DNA of 64,000 bases from Bdellovibrionota bacterium (GCA_050950765.1 JBMNIF010000003.1:384001-448000); one strand, 5' to 3'. Positions 13,059 through 39,078 are shown, counted from the first letter of the stretch. The notes: generated by a model not told the origin, from the letters alone. Translations and numbers: made by a program.

Positions 13059-13076
13059 ATCCTTATTTCCCCTCCA

Positions 13077-13968
13077 CCAATTAGGACACCCAAACTTCAA
13101 AATCACAATAATCTAATAATATCAAGATGTTAACAAAAGCTTAGAAATTGGCAGATCTGGTGCCACCCTTCAGTAGGACAGCTTGTCACTGGTGCCACCC
13201 ACCAGTGCTAAAAGCCTTTAAAATTACGATAGCTAATAATATCAATCCATCTAGTGACAACTGAACGGGCTGCAACTGCAAAACGAATCAGCTAGGTCTC
13301 GACGGAGGTTAAAAATCTGGTGCCACCCTTCAGCAAAAGGTGGGTGTCCTAATTGAAAAAGCCGCTAGAGCGGATCAGCTAGATCTCGACGGCGGCTTTG
13401 GTTTTAGTGCCACCCTTCAATAAGACGAGTTCTGTTGGATTTGGGCGGCTTTGAATCTGGTGCCACCCTTCAGCAAAAGGTGGGTGTCCTAATTAAAAAG
13501 TCAGTGACGCTTGAACGGGCTGCAACTAAAAATCAAATCAGCTAGGTCTGGACGGAGGTTAAAAATTTGGTGCCACCCTTCAGTAGGGCAGGCTGTCGCT
13601 GGTGCCACCCACCAGCGTCGCAGACGCTTTGCAAATAGGACACCCAAACTTCAAAATTATAACATCTAATAATATCAAGATGTTAGCAAAAGTTTAGGAT
13701 TCGGCAGATCTGGTGCCACCCTTCTTTGTTGCAGTTTGTCACTGGTGCCACCCACCAGTAAGAGCGGATTCCCTTCAAAGACAACTGGACGGGCTGTAAC
13801 TTGCAGAACAGATCAGCTAGATCTCGACGGGGGTTAAAAGTGGGTGTCCTAATTGAGGGGTGCTAGGCACTGGTGCCACCCACCAAGATGCTCCCCACTT
13901 CTTAGGGGCGCTTGAACGGGCTGCAACTGAAGACAGAACTAGCTAGATCTTCACGGAGGTAAAAGGTT
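13077..13968 (+). repeat. Mosaic REP/BIME-like repeat field 1a
   Basis: About 10 GGTGCCACCC cores, GGGTGTCCTAATT/AGGACACCC motifs and IHF-consensus modules shared with the other fields. Confidence 0.9.
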
Positions 13969-14125
13969 GCCCATAAAAACAAATTGCTCTAATATTAACA
14001 GGTGGTTACAAGTTCGGCTTTAATCTGGCTTAATCGCTTGTTATAGCGGTATAAGCTCTCACTTTCCGAACAACTTTCACTAAGTACATAAAGAAATAAT
14101 CAAAGAAGGTGTTAGTTAATAAGAT

Positions 14126-14401
14126 ATGCGTCAAATAATTATCTTAACTCTATTATTTAATTACATATCTTCCCCAATAGCTTGGGGAGCTACACCTGAA
14201 GCATCTAAAAAATCACCTACCGAGCACTCCTCTAAAACAGATGCAAAGGTTGACCCTTCAATACTGCAAGAGCTAGAAGAACTTATTAAAAAATCCCCGC
14301 AATCTTCAGAAGCTCATTTTAATGTCGGTGTTGCTCAATATCGTTTATCGAAATATCAGGAGGCACTGGTGCCACCCACCAAGATGCTCCCCACTTCTTA
14401 G
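14126..14401 (+). pseudogene. Truncated 5' copy of the batC-like gene fused to repeat DNA
   Basis: First 79 aa match 15025.. with one substitution; then reads into GGCACTGGTGCCACCC and stops. Confidence 0.9.
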
Positions 14402-14868
14402 GGGCGGTTGGACGGGCTCAAACAGAAGAGCGGCTTTGGTTTTGGTACCACCCTTCAATAAGACGGGATCTACTAAATTTTGGCGGCTTTGAATTTGGTG
14501 CCACCCACCAGCGTCGCAGACGCTTTACAAATAGGACACCCAAACTTCAAAATTATAACATCTAATAATATCAAGATGTTAGCAAAAGTTTAGGATTCGG
14601 CAGATCTGGTGCCACCCTTCTTTGTTGCAGTTTGTCACTGGTGCCACCCACCAGTAAGAAGAGCGGATTCCCTTCAAAGACAACTGGACGGGCTGTAACT
14701 TGCAGAACAGATCAGCTAGATCTCGACGGGGGTTAAAAGTGGGTGTCCTAATTGAGGGGTGCTAGGCACTGGTGCCACCCACCAAGATGCTCCCCACTTC
14801 TTAGGGGCGGTTGGACGGGCTGCAACTAAAAATCAGATCAGCTAGGTCTGGACGGAGGTAAAAGGTTG
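14362..14868 (+). repeat. Mosaic repeat field 1b
   Basis: About 6 cores, IHF module at 14569-14581, same modules as field 1a. Confidence 0.9.
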
Positions 14869-15024
14869 CCCATAAAAACAAATTGCTCTAATATTAACAG
14901 GTGGTTACAAGTTCGGCTTTAATCTGGCTTAATCGCTTGTTATAGCGGTATAAGCTCTCACTTTCCGAACAACTTTCACTAAGTACATAAAGAAATAATC
15001 AAAGAAGGTGTTAGTTAATAAGAT

Positions 15025-16089
15025 ATGCGTCAAATAATTATCTTAACTCTATTATTTAATTACATATCTTCCCCAATAGCTTGGGGAGCTACACCTGAAG
15101 CATCTAAAAAATCACCTACCGAGCACTCCTCTAAAACAGATGCAAAGGTTGACCCTTCAATACTGCAAGAGTTGGAAGAACTTACTAAAAAATCCCCGCA
15201 ATCTTCAGAAGCTCATTTTAATGTCGGTGTTGCTCAATATCGTTTATCGAAATATCAGGAAGCTGTTAAATCTTTTGAAAAGGCAGCCCTCTTAAGTAAA
15301 GATGAGCACCTTACAGCTGAATGCCTCTATAATCTTGGGAACTCCTTTTACAAATCGGCTGAAGAAAGTTTGCAAACAGATCCGCAAGAAGCTTTAAAAC
15401 TTCTATCCCAAAGTGCAACATCATTCTCCGAATCCTTAAGGAGAGATCCAAGTAATCCCCTCTCCGGAAAGAATCTTGAGTTTACAAGAAAAACCATCCA
15501 GCGCCTTAAAACTGCTATGGAAAAGAAAAAACAGGAACAGCAAAAACAAGATCAAGCAAAAAAAGATCTGGAACAATTAAAGCGAGATCAGGAGAGCTTA
15601 AATAAGCAAACTAAAGAAACTGCCGCACAAGAAAAAGAGGATCCTTCAAATCAATCCAATCAGAACAATGAAGAAACTACCAAGCAAGCTAAAAAGCAAC
15701 AGGAGTTAAAACAGAAAGGATCAGAATTAAGAGATAAACTTTCAAATGAAAAGGCTGCCTCCGATCTGGAAGATGCCGTTAAAAATATGTCAGAAGCACA
15801 AAAAAATTTAACTCAAGGCAACCCACACCAAGCTGCTAAAAACCAAGAACAAGCTCTTAAAAATATCAACGAAGCGTTGAAAAAATTCTCGGAAGAAAAA
15901 CAGCAACAGAAAAAAGATCACGATAAAAACACTTCAAAAGATCCTGCTTCTCAGCAAAAGCAAGAGACCACACCACACCAAACGAACGACGAAGCTCAAA
16001 AGATTTTACAACAAGAACAGGAAAATCGTAACAGATATAACAGCGCCACTACTTCCGGTGGAATCGCATCTGTTGATAAGGATTGGTAA
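15025..16089 (+). CDS. batC: BatC-like TPR protein with Gln/Lys-rich tail
   Basis: TPRs AHFNVG and LYNLGNSFY, Q/K/E-rich region, terminal DKDW; upstream of batD. Confidence 0.75.
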   Translation: MRQIIILTLLFNYISSPIAWGATPEASKKSPTEHSSKTDAKVDPSILQELEELTKKSPQSSEAHFNVGVAQYRLSKYQEAVKSFEKAALLSKDEHLTAECLYNLGNSFYKSAEESLQTDPQEALKLLSQSATSFSESLRRDPSNPLSGKNLEFTRKTIQRLKTAMEKKKQEQQKQDQAKKDLEQLKRDQESLNKQTKETAAQEKEDPSNQSNQNNEETTKQAKKQQELKQKGSELRDKLSNEKAASDLEDAVKNMSEAQKNLTQGNPHQAAKNQEQALKNINEALKKFSEEKQQQKKDHDKNTSKDPASQQKQETTPHQTNDEAQKILQQEQENRNRYNSATTSGGIASVDKDW

Positions 16090-17927
16090 TGAATAATCAT
16101 CGTTATATATATTTTTTTCTCAGCTGTTTTTTACTATTCATGACTTTAATCGGCGATGCCGTAGCGGAGAATATTACAGCTTATGTACAGGTAGAGAATC
16201 AAGAAGTCTATTTGGGGGATTCTTTCGGATTACAGATCGTTGTTATCGGCGAAACGAAACCGGATGCTCCAGATCTTGAAGAGCTTGATAACTTTAAAGT
16301 TGAAACTCTCGGCGTAAGCAACTCAAGTAGCAGTAGCATCAGCATCATAAATGGCAGAAGACAAGAAAGCACTCAATACCAATATGTTTTCAATTACAGA
16401 TTGACACCAAAGACAACAGGAACTTTTACAATCCCATCCTTTACACTATCAGCTGCAGGGGAAAGTACCACAACAAAACCTCTAAAAATCAATGTAGTCA
16501 CTCCGAAAGGAGACCCTGATTATAAGTTGCGTCTTACACTTTCAAAAGACACCGCCTATGTCGGAGAAGCGCTCACTCTAAACATCACTTGGTATCTAGC
16601 AAGTGATGCCAGCAATTTTAATTTTTCATTACCTATTTTAGATGATCCCCGTTTTGCAGTACACCATCCAGAAGTTACTCCGCACAGTGGCAATGAATAT
16701 ATCCGTTTCCCGTTAGCAGGGCGTGATATCTTTGCGAAAAAAAGTTCCGCCGAGCTTGAAGGAAAATTCTATACTACCATCTCCTTTCAACAAATTATTA
16801 TTCCTAAACAGAGTGGCGAGATAGAATTGCCTAAAGGTGTCGTAACTGGGAAAAAGATTACAGGTTATAGCCGCCAAAATAGACGAACAGGTCTAATTAT
16901 CGGCGACCCTTTCTTTGATGATTTTTTTAATGCAAGGGAACCTATCTATCAACGTTTTGCCATACCCTCTAATCAACCTAAATTAACAGTTAAAGAGGTG
17001 CCGAGCACAGGGAAGCCTTACGACTTTACAGGTCTGATCGGCGATTATTCAATCATAGCTAACGCCACCCCCACCGATGTTAATGTAGGAGATCCTATAA
17101 CACTTACAATCGAAATTGCTGGTCCTAACTATATGGGGAACGTCTCAATTTACCCCTTAGAGAAACGTCAGGAATTAACAGGTGATTTTAAAGTCCCCGT
17201 AGAGATGGCAGCCCCTAAGATAAAACAGGGTATCGCAACATTTACGCAAACGATTAGACCCCTACGTCCTGATGTTAAACAGATTCCACCACTTAGATTA
17301 TCGTATTTTGATAGTAGTAAAGGAAAATACCTCACAACTTCTAGTGACCCGATCCCGTTAAAAGTAACATCAGCTAGAATTGTAACTGCACAAGACGCAG
17401 AGGGCACCACTTCTCCCATCCTTCAAACAACTACCTTAAAAACTTCAGCAGATGGAATTGTATATAATTACACTGACACCGCAAAGTTATTAGCAAAAGA
17501 AGTTGGCGCTACGCCCATTCAAAATAGCCCCTTCTGGATGTTTTTACTTATCGTTCCTTGCGGTCTGTATCTGATAATACTTGGAGTTCTCTCCTACAAA
17601 AGATTGAGTATGGCGGGGAGTAATAACGATGTTCGTAGTAACATTGCAGAGATCAAGAAACTTTGTCATGACAAAGCAGCACCGCAACAGATCCTTTCCG
17701 CATTCCGTAATTATCTCTCAAAAAAACTACTCCTCTCTGCAGGTTCCACAACATTTAAAGATATCGAACCTATCTTACAACAAAAAGGTATCTCATCGAC
17801 TCTCTTGGAAGAGATAAATACTTTCTTACAAGCACTTGAGGCGGCAAGTTATGCCGGAGCAGATGATGATACCGTACGTCCTCAAATGTTAAAAATCCTC
17901 AACAAGATGGAGAAAGAAATAAAATGA
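16089..17927 (+). CDS. batD: BatD family protein
   Basis: SSSISIINGR, YVGE, DPFFDDFF, FTGLIGDY, VGDPITLTI, C-terminal TM; TAATG coupling to batC. Confidence 0.9.
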   Translation: MNNHRYIYFFLSCFLLFMTLIGDAVAENITAYVQVENQEVYLGDSFGLQIVVIGETKPDAPDLEELDNFKVETLGVSNSSSSSISIINGRRQESTQYQYVFNYRLTPKTTGTFTIPSFTLSAAGESTTTKPLKINVVTPKGDPDYKLRLTLSKDTAYVGEALTLNITWYLASDASNFNFSLPILDDPRFAVHHPEVTPHSGNEYIRFPLAGRDIFAKKSSAELEGKFYTTISFQQIIIPKQSGEIELPKGVVTGKKITGYSRQNRRTGLIIGDPFFDDFFNAREPIYQRFAIPSNQPKLTVKEVPSTGKPYDFTGLIGDYSIIANATPTDVNVGDPITLTIEIAGPNYMGNVSIYPLEKRQELTGDFKVPVEMAAPKIKQGIATFTQTIRPLRPDVKQIPPLRLSYFDSSKGKYLTTSSDPIPLKVTSARIVTAQDAEGTTSPILQTTTLKTSADGIVYNYTDTAKLLAKEVGATPIQNSPFWMFLLIVPCGLYLIILGVLSYKRLSMAGSNNDVRSNIAEIKKLCHDKAAPQQILSAFRNYLSKKLLLSAGSTTFKDIEPILQQKGISSTLLEEINTFLQALEAASYAGADDDTVRPQMLKILNKMEKEIK

Positions 17928-18736
17928 AGCATCTGTTTTTAACCGTAAGTATTTACATTACTGTCCTACTCTCGGCTTTCGTTACTCCGCTTTATGGTGA
18001 AGGCTTATCAACTTTACAAACCAAAGATATTTTAAAAGAAGCCAACGCTTTTTTTAAAGAAGGAAGCGACTTACCCCCTTCCGACAGAGCAAAGAGAGAT
18101 GAACTCTACCGTAAAGCTCTGTTACGTTATGAACAACTAATAAACGAAGCCGGAATAAAAAATGGAGCTATCTATTACAATACTGCAAATATCTATTTCC
18201 TGTTAGGCGACTTAGGACGTGCCATCTTAAACTATCGTCGCGCTGAACTCTTCGCACCAACAGACGATAATATCTTAAAAAATCTGGAGTATGTACGTAA
18301 TCGCAAAATTGATAAGATAAACACGACTAATTCAAAGTCACCTCTAAAAACGATCTTTTTTTGGCACTATTTATTAAGTAAAACCACAAAAGTTAAAATA
18401 GCTATCGTATTTTTCGCTCTGTTTTGGATCTTTTTAACAGTTAGACTTTTGAAGTTGCGATCTTGTTCCCGTATATTTCCAACTTTGTGCGCTCTGATTA
18501 CTATACTTTTTTTAACATCAGCCTTTATTTATGAAGAATCAAAAGCTGCTGTAATTATAGCTCCCGAAACAATAGCTCGTAAAGGTGACGGATTAAATTA
18601 TGAACCTGCTTTTAAAGATCCTCTACACGCCGGAACTGAAGTAGTAATAAAAGAAGATCGTGATAACTGGTTACGCGTAGAATTACCCGACGGCAGCTCT
18701 TGTTGGTTACTTGCTAACGATCTAGAAGTGATCTGA
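17924..18736 (+). CDS. batE: BatE-like TPR plus SH3 protein
   Basis: YYNTAN..GRAILNYRRA, TM segments, LHAGTEV..WLRVELPDG. Confidence 0.85.
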   Translation: MKHLFLTVSIYITVLLSAFVTPLYGEGLSTLQTKDILKEANAFFKEGSDLPPSDRAKRDELYRKALLRYEQLINEAGIKNGAIYYNTANIYFLLGDLGRAILNYRRAELFAPTDDNILKNLEYVRNRKIDKINTTNSKSPLKTIFFWHYLLSKTTKVKIAIVFFALFWIFLTVRLLKLRSCSRIFPTLCALITILFLTSAFIYEESKAAVIIAPETIARKGDGLNYEPAFKDPLHAGTEVVIKEDRDNWLRVELPDGSSCWLLANDLEVI

Positions 18737-18820
18737 CACGACCCTTTTATAAAAATATCAATACACCCTAACGAAATAAACGATCAACGCTCCACGACCT
18801 TAACGTGATTATGCCTTAAT

Positions 18821-18852
18821 CAAAACTTTTCCCCTTTACGTATATTAGGTAA
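18821..18852. mobile_element. Orphan IS end resembling the right end of the 9325-10889 IS
   Basis: CAAAACTTTTCCCCTTTACGTATATTAGGTAA vs reverse complement of the 10889 end CCCAAACTTTCCCCTTTTTACGTATGTTAAGTAA. Confidence 0.6.
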
Positions 18853-18914
18853 ACGCTTTTACGTGGATAGCACTTTCAACACCCGCCAAAATCTAGCCGC
18901 TCACTCTACAATCT

Positions 18915-19157
18915 CAGCCCATTCAATTTTTTAACCCCCGTTAACATCTAGCTAATCCGTTCTGCATGGTTTCAGCCCATTCAATTTTTTAACCCCGTTA
19001 ACATCTAGCTAATCCATTCTGCATGGTTCCAGCCCGTTCAATTTTTTAACCCCCGTTAACATCTAGCTAATCCATTCTGCATGGTTCCAGCCCGTTCAAT
19101 TTTTTAATCCCCGTTAACACCTAGCTAATCCGTTCTGCAGGCTCCAGCCCGTTCAAT
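18915..19157 (-). repeat. Tandem repeat of about 57 bp, roughly 4 copies; inverted module of the repeat fields
   Basis: CAGCCCRTTCAATTTTTTAACCCCCGTTAACATCTAGCTAATCCRTTCTGCATGGTT repeated. Confidence 0.9.
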
Positions 19158-19243
19158 CGTCATTGGAGGGTAAGAAAACGTCATTGGAGGATGAGAAAAC
19201 GTTATTGAAGAGTGAGGGAACGTCATTGAAGGGTAGCACCAGT
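19158..19243 (-). repeat. 21-bp tandem repeat (about 4 copies) ending in an inverted core variant
   Basis: CGTCATTGGAGGGTAAGAAAA-like units; 19228-19243 reverse complement is ACTGGTGCTACCCTTC. Confidence 0.8.
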
Positions 19244-21001
19244 ACAAGAGAACCTTTAAGTAGTTTGGTGCTATGAGTTAAAAAATTCTTAAACCGTTAA
19301 TGGATTATTTTTCCTAAATTCCCGTTTTTTTTATAGTCTACACCTTAGTATTTAATATTTTATCGATAAAAATCTTCTGGTCAATTTCTAATGCTTCTAA
19401 AATATCTTTTTGTTTTTTTGTTAATGGCTGTAGTAGCATGCTCAGATTTTCATTATCTATGCGTCTTATCATTTTAAGCGTTTCTAAAACTCTCTGAATG
19501 GTTTTTTTCTACTTTTTTGTTATTATTATTTATAGTTCTTTGTAGGTCTGACCACATAATTAAGCTAAGAAAGGAGACGAAGCTTTTGCCGTCAGTAGTT
19601 TTTTCATTATGTGTTAGCATACGGTCATTATCCAATTCATTTTTTAAATTATCGAAAGCTTTCTCAATAAAGTCTCGTCGTGAATAGATATGAAGTGCTT
19701 CTTGTGGTGTCATTGTTGAGTGGTTACTCAAAAAAGCAAAAACTCCTAGCATAGATAAGATATCGGTAATTTTTTCATGATCTCTTTCAAAACTTTCTAA
19801 CTGCACTTCTTTCTTAGTTTTTATTTTGTAGTATTTAGAGTAGCGACTCATACTCATAGGCTTTTTCATTTCTTTTAGTTCATCTTCTAATCTGTCAATA
19901 TGAGAGTAAAGAGTGCTCTCTTCCTCAGATGCACTTTTTGTATTTAAGTAAACGTAGAGAGAAAATTTTTCTCCATTTATCTCAATATCTTTTCTTACCC
20001 CATAACAATTTGTCCCAGATATGTGATTCCTAGAAGAGCGAAGAGTAACAGATGCTTCCCTCATAGTATCGTTATAATTTTTCTGAGATTTAGGAACAGC
20101 TACGAGAAATTCTATTTGCTCTTTTTTTATATATTCTAAATTTTCTTTTGTAATAAAACCTCTATCCAGAACATAAAATATATCATCAATACCTAAGCTT
20201 TTAGAGTATTCCATCATTGTTGTAAGAAAAACTTTATCAACAACACTTCCACTGTAAAGAAAAAAACTTATTGGTAAATTGCTGTCGGTAGCGTATAAAA
20301 GTCCGACATTTAGTTGTGGTAAATATTCTTTGTCTCTATTGTATCCATTCTCGGCAAGTGGCAAGTCTGCATAAGTAGAAAGGCTCGTAACATCATAAGC
20401 TACAGTCTCATTGTTTTTCATAGCATGGTTTTTCCACACAGAAAAAAACTTCATTTGATCTTGTTTGGTAATCGATGAAAAAAGCTCACTTGTCTTTTGC
20501 GAAGATAGAGATATGTTTTTAGGGGTAAGAGTATTTTGCAAAAAATTATCTATATTCATCATTACATTGCCTTCGCAAGCCATGTATAACGCAGTATAAA
20601 AGATATCTTCGTATTTATCGGGAAAGATTGTTTTTAAGCATTTTAATAACCCTATAGCCTCAGCTCTCATTTTTAATGCGACTACGTGACCTGCGTCCCA
20701 AACAAAGCGAGAAGAAGCTAGATCAATAACGTCAGATGGCATTGGATAATATTTTCTAAAGTTCTCATTAGGAATCATTCTTCCTTGTCTATCAGGGTCT
20801 ATCTTTCCCACAATCACTTCATCACAAGTAGGTGTGCCGTTCTTATTACGACGATGACCAAGTACGTGATACACATACTTTACGTTTCCTTTGCTATCTT
20901 TTTTATACGAAATCTGTGCTGGTTCAGCGTGAAATGGACATTTGAGGTGCTGAAAAAAGCTACTATAATAGCCTGAGTGATATTAACTAATGGGGTGAAT
21001 A

Positions 21002-21307
21002 ATGGGAAAACATTTTAGTGCAGAAGATAAGGTTAAGATACTGAAGGAGCATTTATTAGGAAATAAGCCGTTATCGAGTTTATGCGATAAATACGGCGTA
21101 CACATTAGTACATTTTATGAATGGCAGAAGCTATTATTTGAGGGAGCTATCCAAATTTTTGAGCGGAATAAAAATGGTAGGAAAGAAGAAAAGAAGCAAG
21201 CTGAACGGATAGATATTTTGGAGAAGAAGCTAACGAAGAAGGATTCTGCGCTAGCGGAGCTTTTGGGGCTTCATATAGATTTAAAAAAAAAGCTTGGGGA
21301 GCTTTAA
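21002..21307 (+). CDS. IS3 OrfA (HTH)
   Basis: FSAEDKVKIL..LCDKYGVHISTFYEW; ends in an A9G slippery run. Confidence 0.9.
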   Translation: MGKHFSAEDKVKILKEHLLGNKPLSSLCDKYGVHISTFYEWQKLLFEGAIQIFERNKNGRKEEKKQAERIDILEKKLTKKDSALAELLGLHIDLKKKLGEL

Positions 21308-21342
21308 CGAAGCGTTGGGTTGAGCCACAAATACGAGATGAG

Positions 21343-24622: not shown

Positions 24623-24726
24623 AACTATGCTCCAAGAGATTTTTCGTTATAAGAGAGATAACAACACTACACTAGGTAGATGCTTGAAATATTTACATCG
24701 ATGCAGCTTTTGCACGCAGGCACAAT

Positions 24727-26135
24727 GTGGTGCCACCCTTCAGGGACAGCTGGGCAGGCTGATACGGCAAAACAGATCGGTTAGGTTTCTACGGAGGTTA
24801 AAAGTGGGTGTCCTAATTGGGGGCTAGATCTCGACGGAGGTTAAAAATTTGGCAGCAAGACGGGTGACGAATTTGGTGCCACCCTTCTTTGTTGCAGGCT
24901 GTCGCTGGTGCCACCCTTCAGCGCCGCAGACGCTTTGCAAATAGGACACCCAAACTTCAAAATCACAACATCTAATAATATCAAGATGTTAGCAAAAGTT
25001 TAAAATTCGACAGATCTGGTGCCACCCTTCAGTGACGCTTGAACGGAGGTTAAAAGTGGGTGTCCTAATTGGGCAGATCTGGTGCCACCCAACAAGATGC
25101 TCCCTCCACTTCTCAGGGGCGCTTGAACGGGCTGAAACTGTAGAACAGATCAGCTGGATCTTCACAGGGGTGAAAAGTGGGTGTCCTAATTGGCAGTGTC
25201 GACGGAGGTTAAAAATTTGGCAGCAAGACGGGTGACGAATTTGGTGCCACCCTTCTTTGTTGCAGGCTGTCGCTGGTGCCACCCACCAGCGCCGCAGACG
25301 CTTTGCAAATAGGACACCCAAACTTCAAAATCACAACATCTAATAATATCAAGATGTTAGCAAAAGTTTAAAATTCGACAGATCTGGTGCCACCCACCAA
25401 TAAGACGCGATCTGCTAGATTTGGACGGCTTTGGTTTCCACCCACCAATAAGACGGGATCTGCTAGATTTGGACGGCTTTGGTTTTGGCGCCACCCTTCA
25501 AGGACAACTGACCACCCACCAGTGCAGTTAAAAATTTGGTGCCACCCACCAGTGCAGAATCTTGGTTTAAAAGGATGAAGTCTTTAAAATCAATATGTTA
25601 GCACCTAACTAAAGATGGTTAGTTTTGGTGCCACCCAACAGCAAGACGGGATCTGTTGGATTTGGGTGGCTTTGGATCTGGTGCCACCCTTCAAGGACAA
25701 CTGAACGGGCTGCAACTAAAAATCAGATCAGCTAGATCTTCACGGAGGTTAAAAAGTGGGTGTCCTAATTAGCAGTGACGGCTGAATGGGCTGATGCTAA
25801 AAATCGAAGTAGCTAGATCTGGACGGAGGTTAAAAATTTGGAAAATTTGGTGCCACCCACCAGTGCAGAATCTTGGTTTAAAAGGATGAAGTCTTTAAAA
25901 TCAATATGTTAGCACCTAACTAAAGATGGTTAGCTTTGGTGCCACCCACCAGTAAGACGGGATCTGTTGGATTTGGGCGGCTTTGGATCTGGTGCCACCC
26001 AACAGCAAGACGGGATCTGTTGGATTTGGACGGCTTTGGTTTTGGTGCCACCCTTCAAGGACAACTGAATGGGCTGATACTAAAAATCGAAGCAGCTAGT
26101 TCTCGACGGAGGTAAAAAGTGCCACCCAGCAGTGC
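24727..26135 (+). repeat. Mosaic repeat field 2
   Basis: About 15 exact cores plus variants; internal duplications 24831-25027/25199-25395 and about 25531-25637/25842-25948. Confidence 0.92.
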
Positions 26136-30182: not shown

Positions 30183-30194
30183 TATTATTGCAGC

Positions 30195-30725
30195 TTATTC
30201 TATCTGCCATTGCTCGTTCGAAGGAATATCAAGCGATGCCTCAGCAGTATTTGTGCGCATTATATAACGTTTTATCTTCTCTCCAGCCATATCTCTGGTG
30301 ATAAATTCTTTACCAGCGACAGCAGAAGTAAATCGCCCCGGTCCCGCCGTGAAAGAATCATAAACAGAATCCCATTTCTCCTTATTTTCTTCAGAGAGGA
30401 CACTTCCGACCCCGATACTTTCATAGCCTGAGACATTTAAAACCACATTCCCGAGTGCCAAGATGGCATAAGGAGGAAAAACAACAATTGTGCCTACTTG
30501 CAGCATACTATTTCCTAAGCCATGCCCATAGAACCAGTTACCTGCAACATCCTTCATCATTTTCTGATTTTCTTCAGGAGGCAGAGGTTTTTGCGTTAAC
30601 ATTCCAGCAAGTTGCGGTTCTGCGCTATCTGTATTTTTTTTCTTAATCACAGAACAAGAAGATAGCAAACCAACTAGGATAAGTAGGAAACAGCCGACTG
30701 TAAAAACATTTTTAGTATCAGCCAT
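30195..30725 (-). CDS. Hypothetical lipoprotein
   Basis: ATG at 30725 with GAGG RBS; lipobox-like LSSC. Confidence 0.65.
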   Translation of the reverse strand: MADTKNVFTVGCFLLILVGLLSSCSVIKKKNTDSAEPQLAGMLTQKPLPPEENQKMMKDVAGNWFYGHGLGNSMLQVGTIVVFPPYAILALGNVVLNVSGYESIGVGSVLSEENKEKWDSVYDSFTAGPGRFTSAVAGKEFITRDMAGEKIKRYIMRTNTAEASLDIPSNEQWQIE

Positions 30726-31055
30726 TAATTCGTACCTCTGAAAAACCGCGGGGAGTATGTTTTTACCGCACACCCCCCTCTTTCACAAAGCCTTCTCTGC
30801 TTTAATCTAAATAAGATTTAGGTGCATTAATAAACAGCAACACAATCGATGCGTTATTAAGATCACCCATCCCAAAGAAGACTCGTTAGTCAAACAGGGA
30901 AAAACTCAAAAAAAAATCTACACTAATTATCACCGAAATTACCAATTTCGGAAAGATACAAAATAATGAAGAAATTCAACTTCTTTTCTTTATTGATCAT
31001 TCAGTAAAAAGGAAGTTCTAAAAAAGAATTTTGTCCTCTATCCATCCACGAAACA

Positions 31056-32285
31056 CTACCCGACAGCTTCTATGGTTACTGAAGAATCCATATTGAGGCA
31101 CTCTGTTTTTAGTAGTGATGTTGCCTGCATCGCCCCCTGTCTCAAGGTACTAATAACTTGCTGTTGTCGCAACAGCAGCGCGCGACGATCTGCCCAAGCG
31201 GAGACGATCTGCTCCGACAAGTTCTTCTCACTTAATGTTGCAAGCTCAAGTCCTAAATGCTCACAATTTAATAACTTCATATATCCGCGCACTTTTGGCG
31301 CATAAATAAGTCCGATTATAGGGACATCCACCGCTGATGCTAAAATTAATGAATGAAAACGCATCCCCACAAACAAACGGCACTCCCGCATCGCCGCCTG
31401 AATATCGTGACTAAGAGAATTGGTATTATCTACAAGAGGTGCATCCGTTAACTCAGAAAGTCTTTTTGAAACACCTTCATCCATCGGCTGAGTGCAAAAG
31501 ATAATCGGCTGCACAACCTCTCCAGATTCTTTCTCAATAGTCTTCTTAGCAGTATTTACGCCATCAGCAATTATCTTAATCAGATCACTACCACTCGCCA
31601 TGCGCTCTTTTTTTGTCAACCACGTATCCAGATACGCCGTAACATTTACCCCAAGCAAAGCTGCACTGTCATAATTAGCGCCCACTTTCCGTAACAACTC
31701 ACACCCTCGTTCTCTAGAAGAAACAGGATTGATAAAAGCAGAATCTCCCGTCAGGCTGATCGGACGCGTCACACCGATCTCTTCAGCAAGGTGTTTACTA
31801 TCCTTTTCTCGCATCGTTACTAAATCACAGCTGTTTATAACATAGCGCGCCATCCACCTACTTAAACGCGAAGGGAATGGTCCAATTCCACAATTAAAAC
31901 AGGCAACTTTACACTTTAAAAGCTTCGCCAATGGCACTAAAAAGAATAGCGTGATTAGATAATTAAAAGCAGGATTGAGTAGTTTTTTCCCAAAAATAAT
32001 CCCATCACAAATTAACGCCACATCACTCTTTGCTAAACACAACAAGGTCGGCAACCCTAACAGGCGCACACTTAACGTCCACGGCATTACATTTACAGGA
32101 TGGACTCGATACTTACTCCCGTAATGTTTCTCTATCCATTGCGGTGCAATAGTTGGAACGTAGAATTCGACGTTAGGAATCTCATTTGAGAGATGCTCCA
32201 TAATACTAGATAAAATGGCAGCATCTCCCAAGTTGCGACCGGAATTATTGCCTAACAGGGTAACCCGCGGAATTTTGTTTTTCAT
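31056..32285 (-). CDS. Polysaccharide pyruvyl transferase family protein (CsaB/WcaK-like)
   Basis: NLGDAAI, GIGP, MREKDS, GMRFHSLILA, YAPKV. Confidence 0.9.
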   Translation of the reverse strand: MKNKIPRVTLLGNNSGRNLGDAAILSSIMEHLSNEIPNVEFYVPTIAPQWIEKHYGSKYRVHPVNVMPWTLSVRLLGLPTLLCLAKSDVALICDGIIFGKKLLNPAFNYLITLFFLVPLAKLLKCKVACFNCGIGPFPSRLSRWMARYVINSCDLVTMREKDSKHLAEEIGVTRPISLTGDSAFINPVSSRERGCELLRKVGANYDSAALLGVNVTAYLDTWLTKKERMASGSDLIKIIADGVNTAKKTIEKESGEVVQPIIFCTQPMDEGVSKRLSELTDAPLVDNTNSLSHDIQAAMRECRLFVGMRFHSLILASAVDVPIIGLIYAPKVRGYMKLLNCEHLGLELATLSEKNLSEQIVSAWADRRALLLRQQQVISTLRQGAMQATSLLKTECLNMDSSVTIEAVG

Positions 32286-32665
32286 TTCGAAGTTGTAAAA
32301 GATTGATATTCAGCAGCATCCATCAATGAATCAAGATCCGTCACCTTAAAATCTACAATTTTAATAATCCACCCCGCTTGATACGGATCGGTGTTAAGTA
32401 GTGAAGGATCGTCAGATAAGAGAGTATTAACCTCTTTGATCTTACCGGAAACAGGGGCGTACACATCAGAAGCTGCCTTCGTTGATTCAGCAACGCAAAA
32501 ACTATTATTCTGCTCCACCTCCATCCCCTCTGTCGGTAATTCGACAAAGACGACATCACCTAACTCAGATTGTGCAAAATCAGTAATTCCGATAGTGGCA
32601 ACATCACCTTCAACACGAATCCACTGATGCTCTTTAGTATATTTTAAATCTTCAGGGTAATTCAT
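32282..32665 (-). CDS. gcvH: Glycine cleavage H protein
   Basis: YTKEHQW, GITDFAQSELGD, lipoyl site ESTKAAS. Confidence 0.96.
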   Translation of the reverse strand: MNYPEDLKYTKEHQWIRVEGDVATIGITDFAQSELGDVVFVELPTEGMEVEQNNSFCVAESTKAASDVYAPVSGKIKEVNTLLSDDPSLLNTDPYQAGWIIKIVDFKVTDLDSLMDAAEYQSFTTSK

Positions 32666-32742
32666 TTCGTATTTTCTCCTTAGAAAAAATGATTCATATC
32701 ACAACGATCCGAAAAGATACAGTGATTGAGTCTTAATAAGTC

Positions 32743-33651
32743 CTAACAAGAACTCGGCGAAAGTAAAGATCTCTTATAAGCGTCAAAAGTATTCGCCATC
32801 AGCATGGCAACGGTCATCGGACCTACTCCACCAGGTACGGGCGTAATAGCACGACACAACTCTTTAACTCCTTCAAAATCAACATCCCCAACTAATTTAC
32901 CATCAGAGAGTCTGTTGATACCAACATCTATCACAATAGATCCTTTAGAAACCCACTCCTTAGTAACCATCTGCGGCACCCCCACTGCCGCTACAATTAT
33001 ATCAGCCTCACGACAGATCTTAGCACCCTCTTTTGTTCGTGAATGCACCACCGTTACTGTGGCGTTTCGCTCCAACAGAAGCATTGAAACAGGTTTTCCA
33101 ACTAAGATCGATCTTCCGATCACAACCGCTTTTAAACCACTTAGATCAGCAGCAGGAGCATCTTCTTCACAACCATCATCTTGATAAGCGAGATCGAGTA
33201 ATTTCATAATCCCGAGCGGAGTGCACGGTCTAATCCCCGCTAGCCCCCGCATCAAAAGCCCTTGATTAACGGGATGTAATCCATCGACATCTTTTTCAGG
33301 AGAGATTAAGTTAAGTAACGACGTGCTATCCAGATGCTTCGGGAGTGGAAGCTGCATCAAGATACCATCCACTTCCGGATTATTATTAAACTGAGAGATG
33401 GCTGCTGCCACCTCTTCTTGCGTAGCATCTTCTGCTAAAATAGCATTAAATGTTTTAAAACCGCATTTTTTAGTGGCTGTTTTTTCTTTATTTGCAACGT
33501 AAGTTTTTGAAGCAGGATTTTCACCAACTAAGACAACAGCCAAACCTGGTTGCCGCTTTCCTTGCTGCACGTAGTGATCAACTTCAGTATGTAGTTTTTT
33601 ATGAATACGGCTGGCTAGCGCCTTACCATCTAAAATTTTGCATAAACTCAT
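32743..33651 (-). CDS. folD: Methylenetetrahydrofolate dehydrogenase/cyclohydrolase
   Basis: QLPLP, KDVDG, PCTP, GRSILVGKP, PVPGGVGPMT. Confidence 0.97.
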   Translation of the reverse strand: MSLCKILDGKALASRIHKKLHTEVDHYVQQGKRQPGLAVVLVGENPASKTYVANKEKTATKKCGFKTFNAILAEDATQEEVAAAISQFNNNPEVDGILMQLPLPKHLDSTSLLNLISPEKDVDGLHPVNQGLLMRGLAGIRPCTPLGIMKLLDLAYQDDGCEEDAPAADLSGLKAVVIGRSILVGKPVSMLLLERNATVTVVHSRTKEGAKICREADIIVAAVGVPQMVTKEWVSKGSIVIDVGINRLSDGKLVGDVDFEGVKELCRAITPVPGGVGPMTVAMLMANTFDAYKRSLLSPSSC

Positions 33652-33901
33652 AATAAAGTTTCCTCCTAAGTTTTACCGATCTCAACTTACCTGCACCTCA
33701 TTAATAAAAAGAGAAGAAGATAATCGACTACTCCTTTTTTTGCAAAGAGAAGAGGTGCTATCTTACTTAAAGATTAATTATTTTACAGCTATCTCAAGCT
33801 CAAGCCCCCACTTTGTAGGTATTTCTCTTTTCTTCTTAATTAGTTAGAGTAGTAAATATTGTAAAACAGATTACTTTTAAACCATCTTGGATACATTAGC
33901 T

Positions 33902-36900
33902 ATGTTTATAAAAAAAATATTTTTCTCCCTATCTCTAATATTTTCATTTTTATACATTTCCAGTGCATTAGCCCTTACTGACGAGATCCCACAACTAGAT
34001 AAAGCAGCAGTCCTACGCTCTGCTGCTGAAATTACCACAGAAAATTATCCTGATGCTGATGACGTTCTGATTGATGACTACACTAGGGTTAAGTACAACG
34101 CTGATGGCACATCCCTTGAACTTTGCGACAGCTACCAGAAAATTCTTACTGAAAAAGGCAAGCGTGACAACAGTGAGATAACTATGCACTTTACAATTCC
34201 ATACGATAAAGTTGCGGTGTTACTCCTTGAAATAATCAAGCCTGATGGCACAACCATTCCCGTAGACATAGCAGCTCAAAGTAAAGAGATGATTAGCTCA
34301 GGACAGATGAACTCAAACATCTATAATCCTAATGACAAAGAGCTAAGAGTCGGAATTCCAAACTTACAGATTAACGATATTGTTCACACCATCACACGTT
34401 CTGAAACCGTCAAACCCATTGTCCCAAATACTTGGAGCGATATAGTAATCTTTGAATACACCTCCCCTATTAAACACCATACTTATGAAGTTATTGCACC
34501 ACACGAACGTCCGCTAAAAAAGATCGCCCTGCGAGATGAAGTAAAAGGGAGTGTCAAAGCTTCAAAAACACAATTAAAAGACGGCATCTCCTACAAGTGG
34601 GAAGTTTTTAACGTTCCGCAGATATTTCCAGAACCTAACATGCCTGCGCTATTCTCCGTTGTTCAACGTCTTATCGTCAGCACAATAGAAGATTGGGAAG
34701 AGATCTCAAAGTGGTACTGGAATATCAGCGAACCGCATCTTGCTGCTACTACTCCAGAGATGCGTCAAAAGGTAGATGAGATCACTAAAGGCATTAATGA
34801 TCCGAGAGAAAAACTTGAAGCGATCTTTCGTTGGGTCTCTCAAGAGATCCGTTACATGGGAATCACCATTGAAGATGATGCACCAGGCTTTGAACCTCAC
34901 GATGTTAAGCTCACCTTTGAACAACGTCACGGAGTGTGTAGAGATAAAGCAGCTTTATTAGTAGCAATGCTACGCATGGCAGGTTTGGATGCTTACCCCG
35001 TGATTATCTATGTGGGTCCTAAACGTGATCCAGAAGTACCGATGGCACGTTTTAATCACGCCGTAGTTGCTGCTGAACTACCACTCCCAAACTCTAAAGA
35101 AAAAGAAACGATCCTAATGGATCCCACAAATGAAAGCACAAAAGACCTTTTCCCAGCGTATCTAAATGATCGCAGCTACATAATTGCGAAAAGCGCAGGA
35201 GAAACTTTACGCGTTTCGCCTATTACACCGGCAGAAGAAAATGCTGTATCCATTACAACAAAAGCAGCTATTGATGATAACGGACTCTTAAATGCAACAA
35301 CTACCATCGCCTTCAACGGCATTAACGATTCTGCTTATAGAGGATTCTTAGCACGCACCACTTCTGATGAAAGGAAGCGTTTCTTTGAAGCTTTAATAGG
35401 AGCAGTTGCTCCGGAAGCTACCCTCACATCTGTTGAGTTAACACCAAAAAATTTACTAGACACAACGCTCCCCCTCTCTGCTAAGTTAGCATTTAAAACA
35501 GACGATAATATGTTGATACAAGAAAACGGCGTCACCATGTTCGTCCCTCCGTATTTTGGAACTCGTCTCGGTCTAGTTAATTTCGCACTTGGCAAAACAG
35601 GATTGGAGAAACGAAGATACCCTCTCAATATTGATTTTGCTTGTGGAGTTGAAGAAGAGATCGATATCGAACTTGCACCGTCTTTAGGCGCAATAAAAGC
35701 GCTACCTGATGTTACAACCATAAGTAACGATGGAGTTTCTTGGAACGGACAAGCTCTCAAAACAGAAAGCGGCTTAAATATTAAAAGGCAGTTTTACTTA
35801 AAAGTAGTGGAGTTTACTCCGCAACAATATCAGACACTAAAAAACGACCTTAAGGTAATTGAATATGACAAGAGGAAACGTCCGATACTTGAGCAAGGAG
35901 ACGGATCCGACAGAAACGCCGATCTTATTTTACTCGATCGTACAGTTAAGTTTTTTCTAAATGACAGCCACACTTGGAGAGAGGAGCATTACTACAAGAA
36001 GAAGATCTTAACCTATAACGGTAAAAAGGATGCTGCTGAAGTAAAGATAACTTACAACTCAGCTCTGGAAGATGTTAAAGTATTAGAAGCGAAAGTAACA
36101 AATGGCACAGTAACTAAAGAGATCTCTCCTAATGAAATAAATCTTATGGATGCTGCATGGGTAGCTTCTGCGCCACGTTATCCTGCTACAAAAACGTTAG
36201 TTTTAAGTTTACCGAGTGTGGAGATCGGTAGTATCGTTGAATACAAGATCGCTATCGAGAAGAAAGATAGCCCCTTTTTCTCAACACTTCAGATCTTTAG
36301 AGATTTTAACCCACTAAAACGTAAGACCGTTACTATTGATGCACCTAAGGATCTAGCACTCACAATTAAAACAGACGATAACGGTACAGCAATACCGGAT
36401 AACACCGATCATTCGATATTCGATATTACCGACACGACGAAAGGAGATCGCCGCATCCGTACTTGGACGGTTTCAGATCAAAAGCCGCTAACAAAAGAGG
36501 ATAACTTACCGCCTGCCTTTGCCATGACAGCTATGCTGCACGTCACTTCAGGAGATTGGCAGATCTTTTCAAAAAGCATCTATGATAAATTAAAAGAAGC
36601 TGCTGAAAAGCAACCGCAAACAGCTCTCTTAGCTCAACAGATCACGGGAAAAGCTGCAAACAGAGATGAGAAGATAATTGCCATCAGAGATTTTGTTGCA
36701 AAAAATATCCGTCGTGTTGGCCCCACTATCAATATGCTTCCACTAAGCGCCATCACCGCCTCTGATCAAACTATAAAAGACGGATATGGTAATAACAGTG
36801 ACCGAGCTGTTGTGCAGTATGCTCTTTTAAAAGAAGCAGGTTTAAACCCTGAGTATTTATTAGTTGATTCGAGTAGATTAGCGCCTGAATTACTAGAGTT

Positions 36901-37729
36901 CAGAAAGAACGCCTCAGACCTTGATACATTTGATCTGGTACTGGTAAAAGTTCAAGGAGATTCTGAAGAGATAATTCTTAATGACACCAATCAATACGCT
37001 CATCTCGGGACAACCCCTTCCGAGGGACGCTTATCATTAACAGAGAGAGCCGATCTGGAGCTACTCTCAATTCCGCAAAATCTACAAAACTGTGTACACG
37101 TTAATTACGACTTAACCATTGAAAAAGATGGCACTGCCCTTTTAACTTGGACAAAAGAGAGTTTCGGCACTGCCTATGCTTCTGGGAAAAAGTTTTTTTC
37201 AGAGATGACTCCGGAGGAGAGGACACGTTATCAGCAGGAGCAGGTGGCAGCAATTTCACAAAGTGCTATTTTAACAAAAAGTTTAGCGGCAAACTTTAAT
37301 GTTTATCCGAGTAGAGAGACTTTCAGTGTAAAGGTACCTCACTTTGCCGTACAGACCGGAGATTATCTATATTTTAATCTGCCGCGCACCGTTCAAAGGT
37401 TATTTAACGTCCATCAAAAGACACGGGAAAATCCTTTGGCATTTTCTTCCATTACACGTTTAAAGATCGATACAACAGTTACTCTTCCCAAAGAGTTCTC
37501 AAACATAGCTCTTCTGCCGCAACCACAAGAGTGGCACCTTCCGAATGATAGCGGAAAAATTATTTTAAAGGTTGATCTTTCAAAAGCCGACGCTCAAAAG
37601 AAGATACGATTCTCTCAGAGAGTAGACCTAAAACCACTACTACTTGAAGCAGCGGATTATCACCGTGTCTTTGATATCGATAAGACTCTGGCACTACCAG
37701 CAAGTAGAATCGTTTTATTAAAAAAATAA
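33902..37729 (+). CDS. Exported protein with two DUF3857 plus transglutaminase-like modules
   Basis: Signal peptide; module 1 GVCRDKA/FNHAV/MDPT; module 2 GNNSDRA; ATG at 33902. Confidence 0.85.
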   Translation: MFIKKIFFSLSLIFSFLYISSALALTDEIPQLDKAAVLRSAAEITTENYPDADDVLIDDYTRVKYNADGTSLELCDSYQKILTEKGKRDNSEITMHFTIPYDKVAVLLLEIIKPDGTTIPVDIAAQSKEMISSGQMNSNIYNPNDKELRVGIPNLQINDIVHTITRSETVKPIVPNTWSDIVIFEYTSPIKHHTYEVIAPHERPLKKIALRDEVKGSVKASKTQLKDGISYKWEVFNVPQIFPEPNMPALFSVVQRLIVSTIEDWEEISKWYWNISEPHLAATTPEMRQKVDEITKGINDPREKLEAIFRWVSQEIRYMGITIEDDAPGFEPHDVKLTFEQRHGVCRDKAALLVAMLRMAGLDAYPVIIYVGPKRDPEVPMARFNHAVVAAELPLPNSKEKETILMDPTNESTKDLFPAYLNDRSYIIAKSAGETLRVSPITPAEENAVSITTKAAIDDNGLLNATTTIAFNGINDSAYRGFLARTTSDERKRFFEALIGAVAPEATLTSVELTPKNLLDTTLPLSAKLAFKTDDNMLIQENGVTMFVPPYFGTRLGLVNFALGKTGLEKRRYPLNIDFACGVEEEIDIELAPSLGAIKALPDVTTISNDGVSWNGQALKTESGLNIKRQFYLKVVEFTPQQYQTLKNDLKVIEYDKRKRPILEQGDGSDRNADLILLDRTVKFFLNDSHTWREEHYYKKKILTYNGKKDAAEVKITYNSALEDVKVLEAKVTNGTVTKEISPNEINLMDAAWVASAPRYPATKTLVLSLPSVEIGSIVEYKIAIEKKDSPFFSTLQIFRDFNPLKRKTVTIDAPKDLALTIKTDDNGTAIPDNTDHSIFDITDTTKGDRRIRTWTVSDQKPLTKEDNLPPAFAMTAMLHVTSGDWQIFSKSIYDKLKEAAEKQPQTALLAQQITGKAANRDEKIIAIRDFVAKNIRRVGPTINMLPLSAITASDQTIKDGYGNNSDRAVVQYALLKEAGLNPEYLLVDSSRLAPELLEFRKNASDLDTFDLVLVKVQGDSEEIILNDTNQYAHLGTTPSEGRLSLTERADLELLSIPQNLQNCVHVNYDLTIEKDGTALLTWTKESFGTAYASGKKFFSEMTPEERTRYQQEQVAAISQSAILTKSLAANFNVYPSRETFSVKVPHFAVQTGDYLYFNLPRTVQRLFNVHQKTRENPLAFSSITRLKIDTTVTLPKEFSNIALLPQPQEWHLPNDSGKIILKVDLSKADAQKKIRFSQRVDLKPLLLEAADYHRVFDIDKTLALPASRIVLLKK

Positions 37730-37737
37730 GCCGGTCT

Positions 37738-39078
37738 GAATTTGACCACCCTTCAGAGACGGCAGGACGGGCTGCAACTTGCAGAGCGAATCGGTTAGAT
37801 CTCTACGAAGGTTAAAAATTTGGTGCCACCCACCAGTGCTAAAAGCCTTTAAAATTACAATAGTTAATAATATCAATATATTAGCAAAAGCTTAAAATCT
37901 GGCAGTTTTGGTGCCACCCTTCTTTTTTGCCGCTTTGACGGCTTGGGCGACTGGATAAATTTGGTGCCACCCACCACTTTAAAGAGATCTGGCTGGGCTT
38001 GGAACTGGTGCCACCCTTCAGGGACGCCCTACAGGACGCTTGAACGGGCTGCAACTTGCAGAGCAAAGTCGGCTAGATCTTATGGGGGTTAAAAATTTGG
38101 TGCCACCCACCAGTGCTAAAAGCCTTTAAAATTACAATAGTTAATAATATCAATATATTAGCAAAAGCTTAAAATCTGGCAGTTTTGGTGCCACCCACCA
38201 CTTTAAAGATGCTTAGTTTTGGTGCCACCCACCAGTAACAGCACCACCCTTCTATGGGGGTAAAAATTTGGTGCCACCCACCAGTGCTAAAAGCCTTTAA
38301 AATTACAACAGTTAATAATATCAATATATTAGCAAAAGCTTAAAATCTGGCAGTTTTGGTGCCACCCTTCTTTTTTGCCGCTTTGACGGCTTGGGAGGTC
38401 AAAATTTGGTGCCACCCACCAGTAAAAGTGGGTGTCCTAATTGGCGGCTAATAATATCAGTATGTTAGCAAAAGTTAGAATTTGAACTGCAAATCGAATC
38501 GGCTAGATCTGGACGGGGGTTAAAAAACTGGTGCCACCCACCAGTTAAAAGTGGGTGTCCTAATTGGCGGCTAATAATATCAGGATGTTAGTAAAAGCTT
38601 AGGTCTTGGCAGTTTTGGCAGCATTTTGGTGCCACCCTTCAAGGACAACCGAACGGGCTGCAACTGCGGGGCGAAGTCGGCTAGTCTACGGAGGTTAAAA
38701 ATTTGGTGCCACCCACCAGTGCAGAATCTTGGAGGTTAAAAATTTGGTGCCACCCACCAGTGCAGAATCTTGGCTTAAAAGGATGAAGTCTTTAAAATCA
38801 ATATGTTAGCACCTAACTAAAGATGCTTAGTTTTGGTGCCACCCTTCTATGACAATTGAACGGGGTGATACTGCAAAACGAACTGGCTAGATTTCTACGG
38901 AGGTAAAAGGTGGGTGTCCTAATTGGAAGCTAAGGACGATCGAGCGAGCTGATACTAAAAAACGAGTTAGCTAGATCTAGACGGAGGTCAAAAAATTTGG
39001 TGCCACCCTTTAGGGACGACTGAACGGGCTGATACTGCAAAGCGGGATCAGCTAGGTCTCTACGGAGGTCAAAAATTT
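37738..39078 (+). repeat. Mosaic repeat field 3 between convergent genes
   Basis: About 16 exact cores; three copies of an 88-bp IHF module (37822, 38099, 38270); modules shared with fields 1 and 2. Confidence 0.92.

Follow-up and report, generated by a model that had tools for sequence, protein, structure and literature searches.

We analysed a stretch of 64,000 nucleotides from a Bdellovibrionota bacterium (GCA_050950765.1, JBMNIF010000003.1:384001-448000; the whole stretch is called the window below) which carries three fields of a short repeat, the core GGTGCCACCC, and in which perfect matches to the binding consensus of integration host factor (IHF), WATCAANNNNTTR, recur at a fixed distance from a core. 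When searched for as GTGCCACCC, the core is found 48 times in the window, always on the + strand: 15, 16 and 16 copies lie in fields 1, 2 and 3, respectively, and one further copy is at 39187. Field 1 is in two parts, the first of which (13047..13960, + strand) is a mosaic of GGTGCCACCC cores and cassettes that starts just past the terminator-like hairpin of the upstream gene, and the second of which (14365..14860, + strand) is a tandem duplicate of the first, of ~900 bp. The two are separated by a duplicated piece of the 5' end of the downstream gene, and the duplicates 13760-14059 and 14659-14958 are 96% identical. We note that the segmental duplication as a whole (13600-14365 versus 14496-15260, ~900 bp, tandem) carries with it the initial ~240 nt of the TPR/DUF4175 gene that lies downstream (ATG at 14127 versus 15025), the duplicated gene fragment being truncated by a core at 14369. 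As delimited by core positions, field 2 (24725..26135, + strand) has 16 cores between two minus-strand genes, while the 16 cores of field 3 (37735..39075, + strand) lie between convergent genes.

On both strands together the window contains 19 perfect matches to WATCAANNNNTTR, where 7.22 ± 2.82 would be expected and at least 19 were reached in none of 100 shuffles. Eleven of the matches are on the + strand, at 13120, 13673, 14569, 24979, 25347, 25588, 25899, 37871, 38148, 38319 and 38796. An initial annotation of the window had described these eleven sites as each lying exactly 26 nt before a core, in three module types (here called A, B and C), two of which also keep a distance of 39-40 nt from the previous core. 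All of this is borne out: the sites are found by the window scan, the gap computed from the core positions is exactly 26 nt to GGTGCCACCC at all eleven, and the previous core is 40 nt away in type B and 39 nt away in type C. The remaining eight perfect sites are at chance level (8 versus 7.2 expected).

The cassettes that hold these sites are all on the + strand and were delimited using nhmmer and, except where noted, alignment. Type A comprises 13111..13168 (site 13120), which opens field 1 and is preceded by no core on the same strand, 13663..13721 (site 13673), its duplicate 14559..14617 (site 14569), 24969..25027 (site 24979) and 25337..25395 (site 25347). Type B comprises 25579..25636 (site 25588), in which the linker interior has diverged and the length is the same, 25890..25947 (site 25899) and 38787..38844 (site 38796). 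Type C comprises 37861..37919 (site 37871), which sits in an 88-bp core-to-core unit, 38138..38196 (site 38148) and 38309..38367 (site 38319). Two further cassettes depart from the pattern. That at 38446..38539 (nhmmer only), with TATCAG... at 38450, is degenerate or recombined, its linker having been swapped for the interior of another cassette, and it has no core at 26 nt; that at 38570..38637 has a one-mismatch site at 38578, an imperfect 11-nt tandem duplication in its linker and a core at 37 nt.

A single cassette family

The initial annotation treated the three module types as three independent cases of the same spacing. In the window alignment, types A, B and C can be aligned over the whole stretch that begins ~25 nt before the site and reaches the core. 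The linkers of types A and C are identical at 20 of 26 positions; type B partly shares the left arm, together with ATCAATATGTTAGCA and AGTTTTGG, and by our own count on this alignment is about two-thirds identical to type C overall, although its 17 interior linker bases are at chance similarity (5 of 17 the same as in A/C) within a linker of unchanged length. Across the genome the linker variants intergrade. Since the types align throughout and their linkers intergrade, the count of three independent cases is incorrect, and the eleven sites are copies of one cassette family. The spacing of 26 nt is constant because site, linker and core are inherited as a single unit, and the fixed spacing that was offered as evidence of selection is mostly accounted for by common descent. 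The annotation had itself allowed that shared spacing would be trivial among recent copies of one ancestor; the common ancestry is what we find, and the age of the copies is taken up below.

With a profile made from the perfect sites' cassettes, nhmmer detects 190 copies of this IHF-like cassette in the genome, 177 of them near full length. All but six lie inside fields (184 of 190), and these are without exception in core orientation (184 of 184). There is about one cassette to every five or six cores; of the 48 fields with at least ten cores, 43 have a copy, and copies within one field are often identical. The cassette is ~58-75 nt long and has the layout CTAATAA-TATCAAGATGTTA-GCA, ~20 variable nt, TTTTGG-TGCCACCC. 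A composite pattern of site and core is matched 111 times genome-wide and not once with a reversed control.

The genome-wide histogram of site-to-core distances, proposed in the initial annotation as a check, peaks at 26 nt. There are 395 WATCAANNNNTTR sites on both strands, 129 of which have a core no more than 200 nt downstream; the spacing is 26 nt in 79 of these and 25 nt in 30, while 23, 24 and 27 nt account for four together, so that 109 of the 113 spacings between 23 and 27 nt are 25 or 26 nt. Longer spacings of 34-39 nt are seen in six copies, with the one-mismatch site at 38578 as a seventh. For this last site the distance of 26+11 nt had been read as one extra helical turn; the distance is correct, but the additional length is the imperfect tandem duplication in the linker. 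The 34-39 nt class consists of tandem duplications or insertions in the TTTGG-rich linker end, or of recombinants with another cassette, and an apparent class at 15 nt is a second, overlapping consensus that a G>T change has created. We therefore reject helical phasing as an account of the downstream spacings of 15, 26 and 37 nt.

The core repeat in the genome

The genome (2.64 Mb in five contigs, 40% GC) is that of an uncultured organism which is common in digester and bioreactor metagenomes. It contains 1,025 GTGCCACCC cores in 159 fields, of which 49 have a single core and the largest has 28; fields with at least two cores make up 2.8% of the genome. Core orientation is uniform in 141 of the 159 fields, the 18 mixed fields including the six transposase loci described below. 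Gene positions relative to the cores were judged from crude open reading frames (ORFs): 45 of the 1,025 cores fall inside such frames, and of the 84 uniformly oriented fields with at least three cores, 64 have a 5' neighbour gene that runs the same way as the cores, and 34 are flanked by convergent genes. There is no replication-strand bias of the cores (188 + and 303 - at positive GC skew, 270 + and 264 - at negative).

The 847 core-to-core segments fall into length classes that include 79 nt (108 segments), 53 nt (69), 88 nt (46), 32 nt (25) and 43 nt (25). Each class has its own consensus and all end in ...YTGG-TGCCACCC, so the fields are mosaics of about ten kinds of cassette placed head-to-tail between GGTGCCACCC cores. 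The core is flanked on the 5' side by (A/T)nYTG and on the 3' side by TTCAG or ACCAG, and no GTAG or CGTC was seen. The 10-nt core itself is not palindromic; with the ACCAG variant a 5-bp hairpin results. We also observe that the cores form terminator-like hairpins on both strands, TGGCAGTTTTGGTGCCA then CCCTTCTTTT on the + strand and TGGTGGGTGGCACCA then AATTTTT on the - strand (e.g. 37900-37925 and 38098-38112), and that field 3 has eight such terminator-like hairpin sites against 2.2 expected.

The commonest segment, the 79-nt cassette (e.g. 38629-38707), has a 5-bp stem, GGCUG/CAGCU, with two outer pairs. Variation in the stem is almost all between G-C and G-U or between U-A and U-G, and the pairing therefore holds on the core-sense (+) strand only, which points to a strand-specific single-strand structure, of DNA or of RNA. 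A coding role for this cassette (a Shine-Dalgarno-like GGAGG followed by TTG or GTG) was considered and rejected, as common variants put TGA in frame by eye. Searches of a library of open-access papers (RAYT with Bdellovibrio; the core decamer) returned no description of the repeat family, although the supplementary tables of PMC6006769 and PMC5581495 may list members of the transposase clade.

The associated transposase

A search of the genome for a Y1 transposase found six copies of one gene on four contigs, ~99% identical over ~1.4 kb. The product is of 322 amino acids from a conserved MRNRRDRR start, and in the family alignment the HUH and Y-x-Y-x-NP-x-K-A-G-L motifs are invariant. Its best family is the repetitive extragenic palindromic (REP)-associated tyrosine transposase (RAYT; NCBIfam REP_Tyr_transpos) at 67.3 bits, which is below the cut-off of 80, while the IS200 model gives only 18 bits. 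The closest structure is that of E. coli TnpA-REP (4ER8), both by sequence (E 5e-5) and by fold (Foldseek E 7.8e-6, TM 0.60, using an AlphaFold model with pLDDT 80.6). The C-terminal half (residues ~160-305) has a confident fold, and the whole-protein fold search gave no Protein Data Bank match for it.

All six genes have a + core facing a - core upstream, in a long hairpin, and a reverse core downstream, and the arrays around them are + upstream and - downstream. The unit as a whole (C2:7484-8914 and five further copies) consists of the +/- core hairpin, the gene, a terminator-like hairpin and the reverse core. Within the 160 nt before the start codon there are two GGCA-N4-TGCC palindromes and a WATCAA site, the latter ~40 nt upstream of the start codon. 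Comparison of the cassettes with the reversed upstream region of the gene gave a local alignment score of 16 for type C (null 9.6 ± 1.8; reached by a fraction of 0.008 of 500 shuffles); the corresponding fraction for type B is 0.08, and the match of type A is mostly the shared core. The type C value hints that the cassette could be a shrunken derivative of the end of the element, and is suggestive only.

Only eleven homologues of the long Y1 protein, including its own entry, fall in the length window in the protein database, one of them named RayT by its source. A tblastn search returned 339 related stretches, mostly in metagenome-assembled genomes (MAGs) of Bdellovibrionales, Oligoflexia and Myxococcota and often several per genome. 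Among 14 loci inspected by eye, five have the related gene set between inverted ends of the GGTACCACCC-TCTTTT type, or variants of these. The five bracketed relatives (L012, L013, L015, L016 and L026) are from Bdellovibrionales/Oligoflexia MAGs, often with short tandem repeats adjoining, and around other Y1 relatives the flanking repeats contain GGTGCC. On this evidence the cores are the REP-like, or terminal, sequence recognized by this family of transposases, and the core may serve throughout the clade as a recognition tag, as GTAG does in E. coli REPs. The fields represent a proliferation of the core resembling that of bacterial interspersed mosaic elements (BIMEs), and the whole is a REP/BIME-like system.

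Conservation of the motif

Nucleotide diversity (pi) among the cassette copies is 0.09 at the nine consensus positions, about a quarter of that at the intervening N4 (0.32) or in the linker interior (0.37); it is 0.15 at the TAATAA just upstream and 0.01 in the core. The figures are the same when one random copy is taken per field (n = 73). With a linker interior as diverse as this, the cassette copies are not recent. When nine columns are drawn at random, they reach this degree of conservation in 0.075% of permutations (p = 0.00075), a value to be read with the caveat that the cassette copies are related and so are not independent trials. The degeneracy that is seen matches the consensus, with only T/A at W and only A/G at R. 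Of 144 distinct copies, 107 have A and 36 have G at the sixth consensus base; this position is written as R in some versions of the IHF consensus.

To set ascertainment aside, we also collected copies with a profile of the linker and core alone, which yields 141 copies. A perfect site is present in 101 of these and WATCAR in 125, and the column profile is the same. In the canonical IHF site it is WATCA(R) and TTR that confer specificity. Many distinct linker lineages, type B among them, keep the site. These results bear on the explanation that the motif has no function, being a chance feature of a recently spread AT-rich cassette whose conservation reflects shared ancestry and gene conversion. 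Such an explanation would account for the frequent identity of copies within a field, for variation that is dominated by a few transitions, for the confinement of the cassette to this lineage among the genomes searched and for the chance-level number of sites outside the cassettes in the window. It does not sit well with a linker interior old enough to have reached 0.37 while the consensus remains at 0.09, also with one copy per field, nor with the persistence of the pattern in the set collected blind to the motif and of the site in many linker lineages, and we regard it as very doubtful.

RNAalifold finds no consensus structure for the A/C cassette, where counts of the base pairs reveal mismatches that are not convincingly compensated. 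If there is no RNA structure here, a protein site on duplex DNA is favoured as the simplest reading. In our view, the consensus positions are most likely held by purifying selection while the intervening bases drift, and the motif is most likely a real protein-binding site.

The conserved block could instead be a promoter on the complementary strand, firing leftwards into the preceding core, whose hairpin and T-run resemble a weak terminator, and yielding one tiny RNA per unit; or it could be the site of some other protein. The reverse complement of AATAATATCA is TGATATTATT, an extended -10 element, and in field 2 a promoter scan assigns to both type A cassettes a minus-strand promoter, TTTAAA-18-TATTAT with a TG upstream. 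A minus-strand terminator-like TGGTGGGTGGCACCA followed by A2T5 is present at the cores ~40 nt downstream, and TAATAA shows a conservation (pi 0.15) for which the IHF consensus does not account. A single 151-nt metatranscriptome contig, which may be of either strand and may derive from carried-over DNA, matches field 2 (25121-25271, one mismatch). In the sequencing runs, short-read contigs break at fields and the many apparent joints can stem from paralogous fields. Set against these points, a promoter leaves unexplained the conserved TTA/GCA block 5 nt away and the variable gap between the two blocks. Type B has T rather than A at the would-be -11 and lacks a -10 match, none of the four promoter calls in field 3 (types C and B) is on the minus strand, the count for field 2 equals the shuffle expectation (2 versus 1.9), and the 5-bp stems are weak as terminators. 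We therefore consider a promoter, or another protein's site, improbable.

IHF as the candidate ligand

The IHF gene that the initial annotation placed at 8824 proves to be an IHF alpha-like DNABII gene at 8788..9150 on the + strand (Pfam PF00216, E 4e-29; NCBIfam IHF alpha, 106.2 bits), whose product can be aligned to alpha chains. The genome also encodes an IHF beta-like protein (C2:901975-902241; 101.1 bits) and has a third DNABII gene. When aligned to the E. coli chains of 1IHF, the alpha- and beta-like proteins both keep the GRNP(K/Q)TG arm, and the beta-like protein keeps R-I-E-I-R; the GRNP arm and the R-I-E-I-R residues are those which we take to read the IHF consensus.

The surroundings of the site are A/T-rich in part. 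TAATAA is directly 5' of it, and AAAA is found ~17-20 nt upstream in the long forms; where the upstream core is only 17 nt away, this GC-rich core occupies the 5' half of the ~35-bp footprint. Canonical IHF sites have an A/T-rich tract in the 5' half of the footprint. According to PMC3333891, the IHF site of E. coli BIME-1 is in the conserved L linker between REPs, which is the same place as that of the motif here. The comparison with BIME-1/RIB elements made in the initial annotation is thus apt, the cores being REP-like and tied to a Y1 transposase of the RAYT type, and with the transposase present the analogy is stronger than that annotation knew.

The most consistent interpretation of these data, and one that we hold to be rather probable, is that one inherited cassette is carried in transposase-linked arrays and that its motif is a predicted IHF site as in BIME-1. 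Judged from the motif and its conservation, the cassette very probably binds a protein, most likely the IHF heterodimer. The arrays would be a BIME-like product of the six-copy, 322-residue RAYT-type Y1 (HUH) transposase and of local duplication. The cell's own IHF heterodimer would bind the cassette motif, as IHF does the L linker of E. coli BIME-1 (RIB/RIP), and might serve in structuring the nucleoid or help in the processing of the arrays. The data establish the repeat family, its link to the transposase, the pattern of conservation and the presence of IHF genes, whereas IHF binding and any role for it are inferred.

Several observations weigh against this interpretation. The alpha- and beta-like proteins score just below their NCBIfam equivalog cut-offs (111 and 115, respectively), and the Y1 transposase, too, is below its family cut-off (67 versus 80) and is multi-copy, unlike typical RAYTs. 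TAATAA is nearly as conserved as the motif (pi 0.15) and lies outside the IHF consensus; the best-fitting mask of conserved and variable columns is one column to the left of the consensus frame (0.274 versus 0.226), a shift that results from the A/G variation at the sixth consensus base; and other cassettes, too, have conserved blocks, so that block conservation is not special to the IHF-like cassette. The cassette was found neither in 40 related genomes nor in five genomes with related transposases, and WATCAR is present within 300 nt upstream of only one of 19 related transposase genes. In metagenome contigs, the 22-nt cassette pattern occurs in 19 stretches (~12 distinct loci), none of them with a core, and we judge these to be chance matches in AT-rich DNA. 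The number of WATCAANNNNTTR matches is above that of the reversed control in four of the five related-transposase genomes, by up to ~100, and the 13-mers concerned are diverse; in the four genomes that were searched again, the cassette-like 13-mer is rare, it and its control giving 12 and 5, 6 and 5, 9 and 4, and 3 and 5 matches.

Geometry around the predicted bend

In the initial annotation the constant spacing was taken as evidence that the geometry itself is under selection, with IHF bringing two cores together. According to PMC5829579, the kink nearest to TTR in the IHF-DNA complex is 6 bp from it and the kinks are ~9 bp apart, which would put the centre of the bend within 1-2 bp of the W of the consensus. 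The 88-bp units, such as the type C one at 38100-38197, have 39-40 nt between the end of the upstream core and W, and 39 nt between W and the beginning of the downstream core. Both cores are therefore equidistant from the predicted bend and a U-turn would align them, which is the best point in favour of that model. In this form, the U-turn made by IHF would lay the flanking cores side by side in a complex that serves the transposase or chromosome structure. It would also suit type B, in which 17 interior linker bases have been replaced and the spacing is still exactly 26 nt, and the concentration of 109 of 113 spacings at 25 or 26 nt.

The upstream side is less regular. The upstream core is at 37-40 nt in only 66 of 146 modules; other distances are 17 nt (22 copies), 29 nt (7), 51-54 nt (10), 60-63 nt (18) and others, these classes reflecting different left-hand partner sequences. 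The distances cluster at ~17, 29, 39, 52, 62 and 73 nt (e.g. 37822-37919 and 25243-25395), with a period of ~11 nt (Rayleigh R 0.78 by copies, and 0.44 with p ~0.02 by distinct distances). The periodicity comes from few independent junction types, however, and neighbouring distances are not independent; we regard it as a weak and unexplained hint. On the downstream side, the outliers at +8 to +13 nt are the duplications or insertions at TTTGG repeats and the recombinants described above, and the '15' is an overlapping match. We know of no role for a duplex-bending protein with single-strand Y1 enzymes. Y1/HUH transposases act on single strands, as stated in PMC3333891, and no such arrangement of site and core was found with related transposases (five genomes; one of 19 upstream sites). 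As the 26 nt travels with the cassette and the upstream distance varies, the constant spacing does not support a selected geometry, which we think unlikely.

A more specific form of this idea is that cassettes are exchanged between direct GGTGCCACCC cores by the multi-copy long RAYT, with the IHF cassette as the architectural part, an IHF U-turn at W synapsing the flanking cores at 39-40 bp and the other distance classes lying ~11 bp out of step. We give this little credence on present comparisons. If it were true, no earlier HUH/Y1 recombination system would have had the help of a host factor, and the REP-IHF partnership of E. coli would have been invented a second time, independently.

Comparison with known systems

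The closest parallel to a predicted IHF site in an inherited, transposase-linked cassette is the BIME-1/RIB (RIP) element of E. coli, which likewise has an IHF consensus in a conserved linker between high-copy extragenic repeats tied to a REP-type Y1 transposase. RIB elements are said, in the title of the 1993 report by Boccard and Prentki, to be at the 3' ends of transcription units, and most of the elements here likewise come after genes, a co-oriented gene preceding 64 of 84 fields. There are also differences. The flanking cores are direct here, not inverted; the cassette occurs many times in long mosaic arrays, whereas descriptions of BIME-1 give one copy per locus; GGTGCCACCC is the core, without the GTAG tag; and the host is apparently a Bdellovibrionota MAG and not an enterobacterium, with an IHF site that is a predicted one.

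In its transposase the system resembles the REPtron, or REP-RAYT system (Nunvar 2010; Ton-Hoang 2012; Bertels & Rainey; PMC6006769, PMC5581495). The Y1/HUH protein best matches TnpA-REP, and its gene is bracketed by inverted copies of the commonest extragenic repeat of the genome, which at ~1,000 copies is well beyond the more than 100 that are looked for. RAYTs are typically single copy (PMC5581495), whereas there are six near-identical gene copies here. The protein is twice as long (322 residues), with an extra, confidently folded C-terminal half, a single core orientation within a field, not an alternation of REP and iREP, is the rule (141 of 159 fields), and there is no GTAG or CGTC tag.

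Two kinds of mobile element offer further parallels. IHF sites are found at the ends of DDE transposons and insertion sequences such as IS10, IS1, Tn1000 and Mu, where IHF helps to build the transpososome. The system here is similar in that a short, fixed distance separates the predicted site of a host bending protein from the sequence that a transposase recognizes, and in the WATCAA upstream of the start codon of its own Y1 gene. It differs in that DDE elements act on double strands while the Y1 enzyme here is of the single-strand type, and the upstream site has no counterpart in 18 of 19 relatives. With the IS200/IS605 family (IS608, ISDra2) it shares the catalytic fold, and subterminal structures together with a short conserved target, as in that family, could explain head-to-tail insertion beside existing copies; unlike that family, the cores show no replication-strand bias, and the IS200 model gives only the low score cited above.

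Work on REP/BIME elements, the IHF-binding subclass included, has to our knowledge been confined almost entirely to enterobacteria and pseudomonads. What is described here is an unusually built REP/BIME-like system from a distant lineage, where a different core, direct mosaic arrays and an IS-like long RAYT are again accompanied by a well-kept IHF consensus between the repeats. If the binding is real, the link between REPs and IHF would look like a recurring solution rather than an oddity of E. coli, and the termini, conserved in many MAGs that have this family of transposases, would offer a new model of array growth.

Other features of the window

A scan of the whole window with Rfam at the gathering threshold gave no matches. 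An ORF of 110 amino acids on the - strand (24989-25321) lies wholly within field 2 and is almost certainly spurious. Directly 3' of the IHF alpha-like gene is a gene for a DDE transposase of the IS1634 family (9448-10863; NCBIfam 145.7 bits, cut-off 100).

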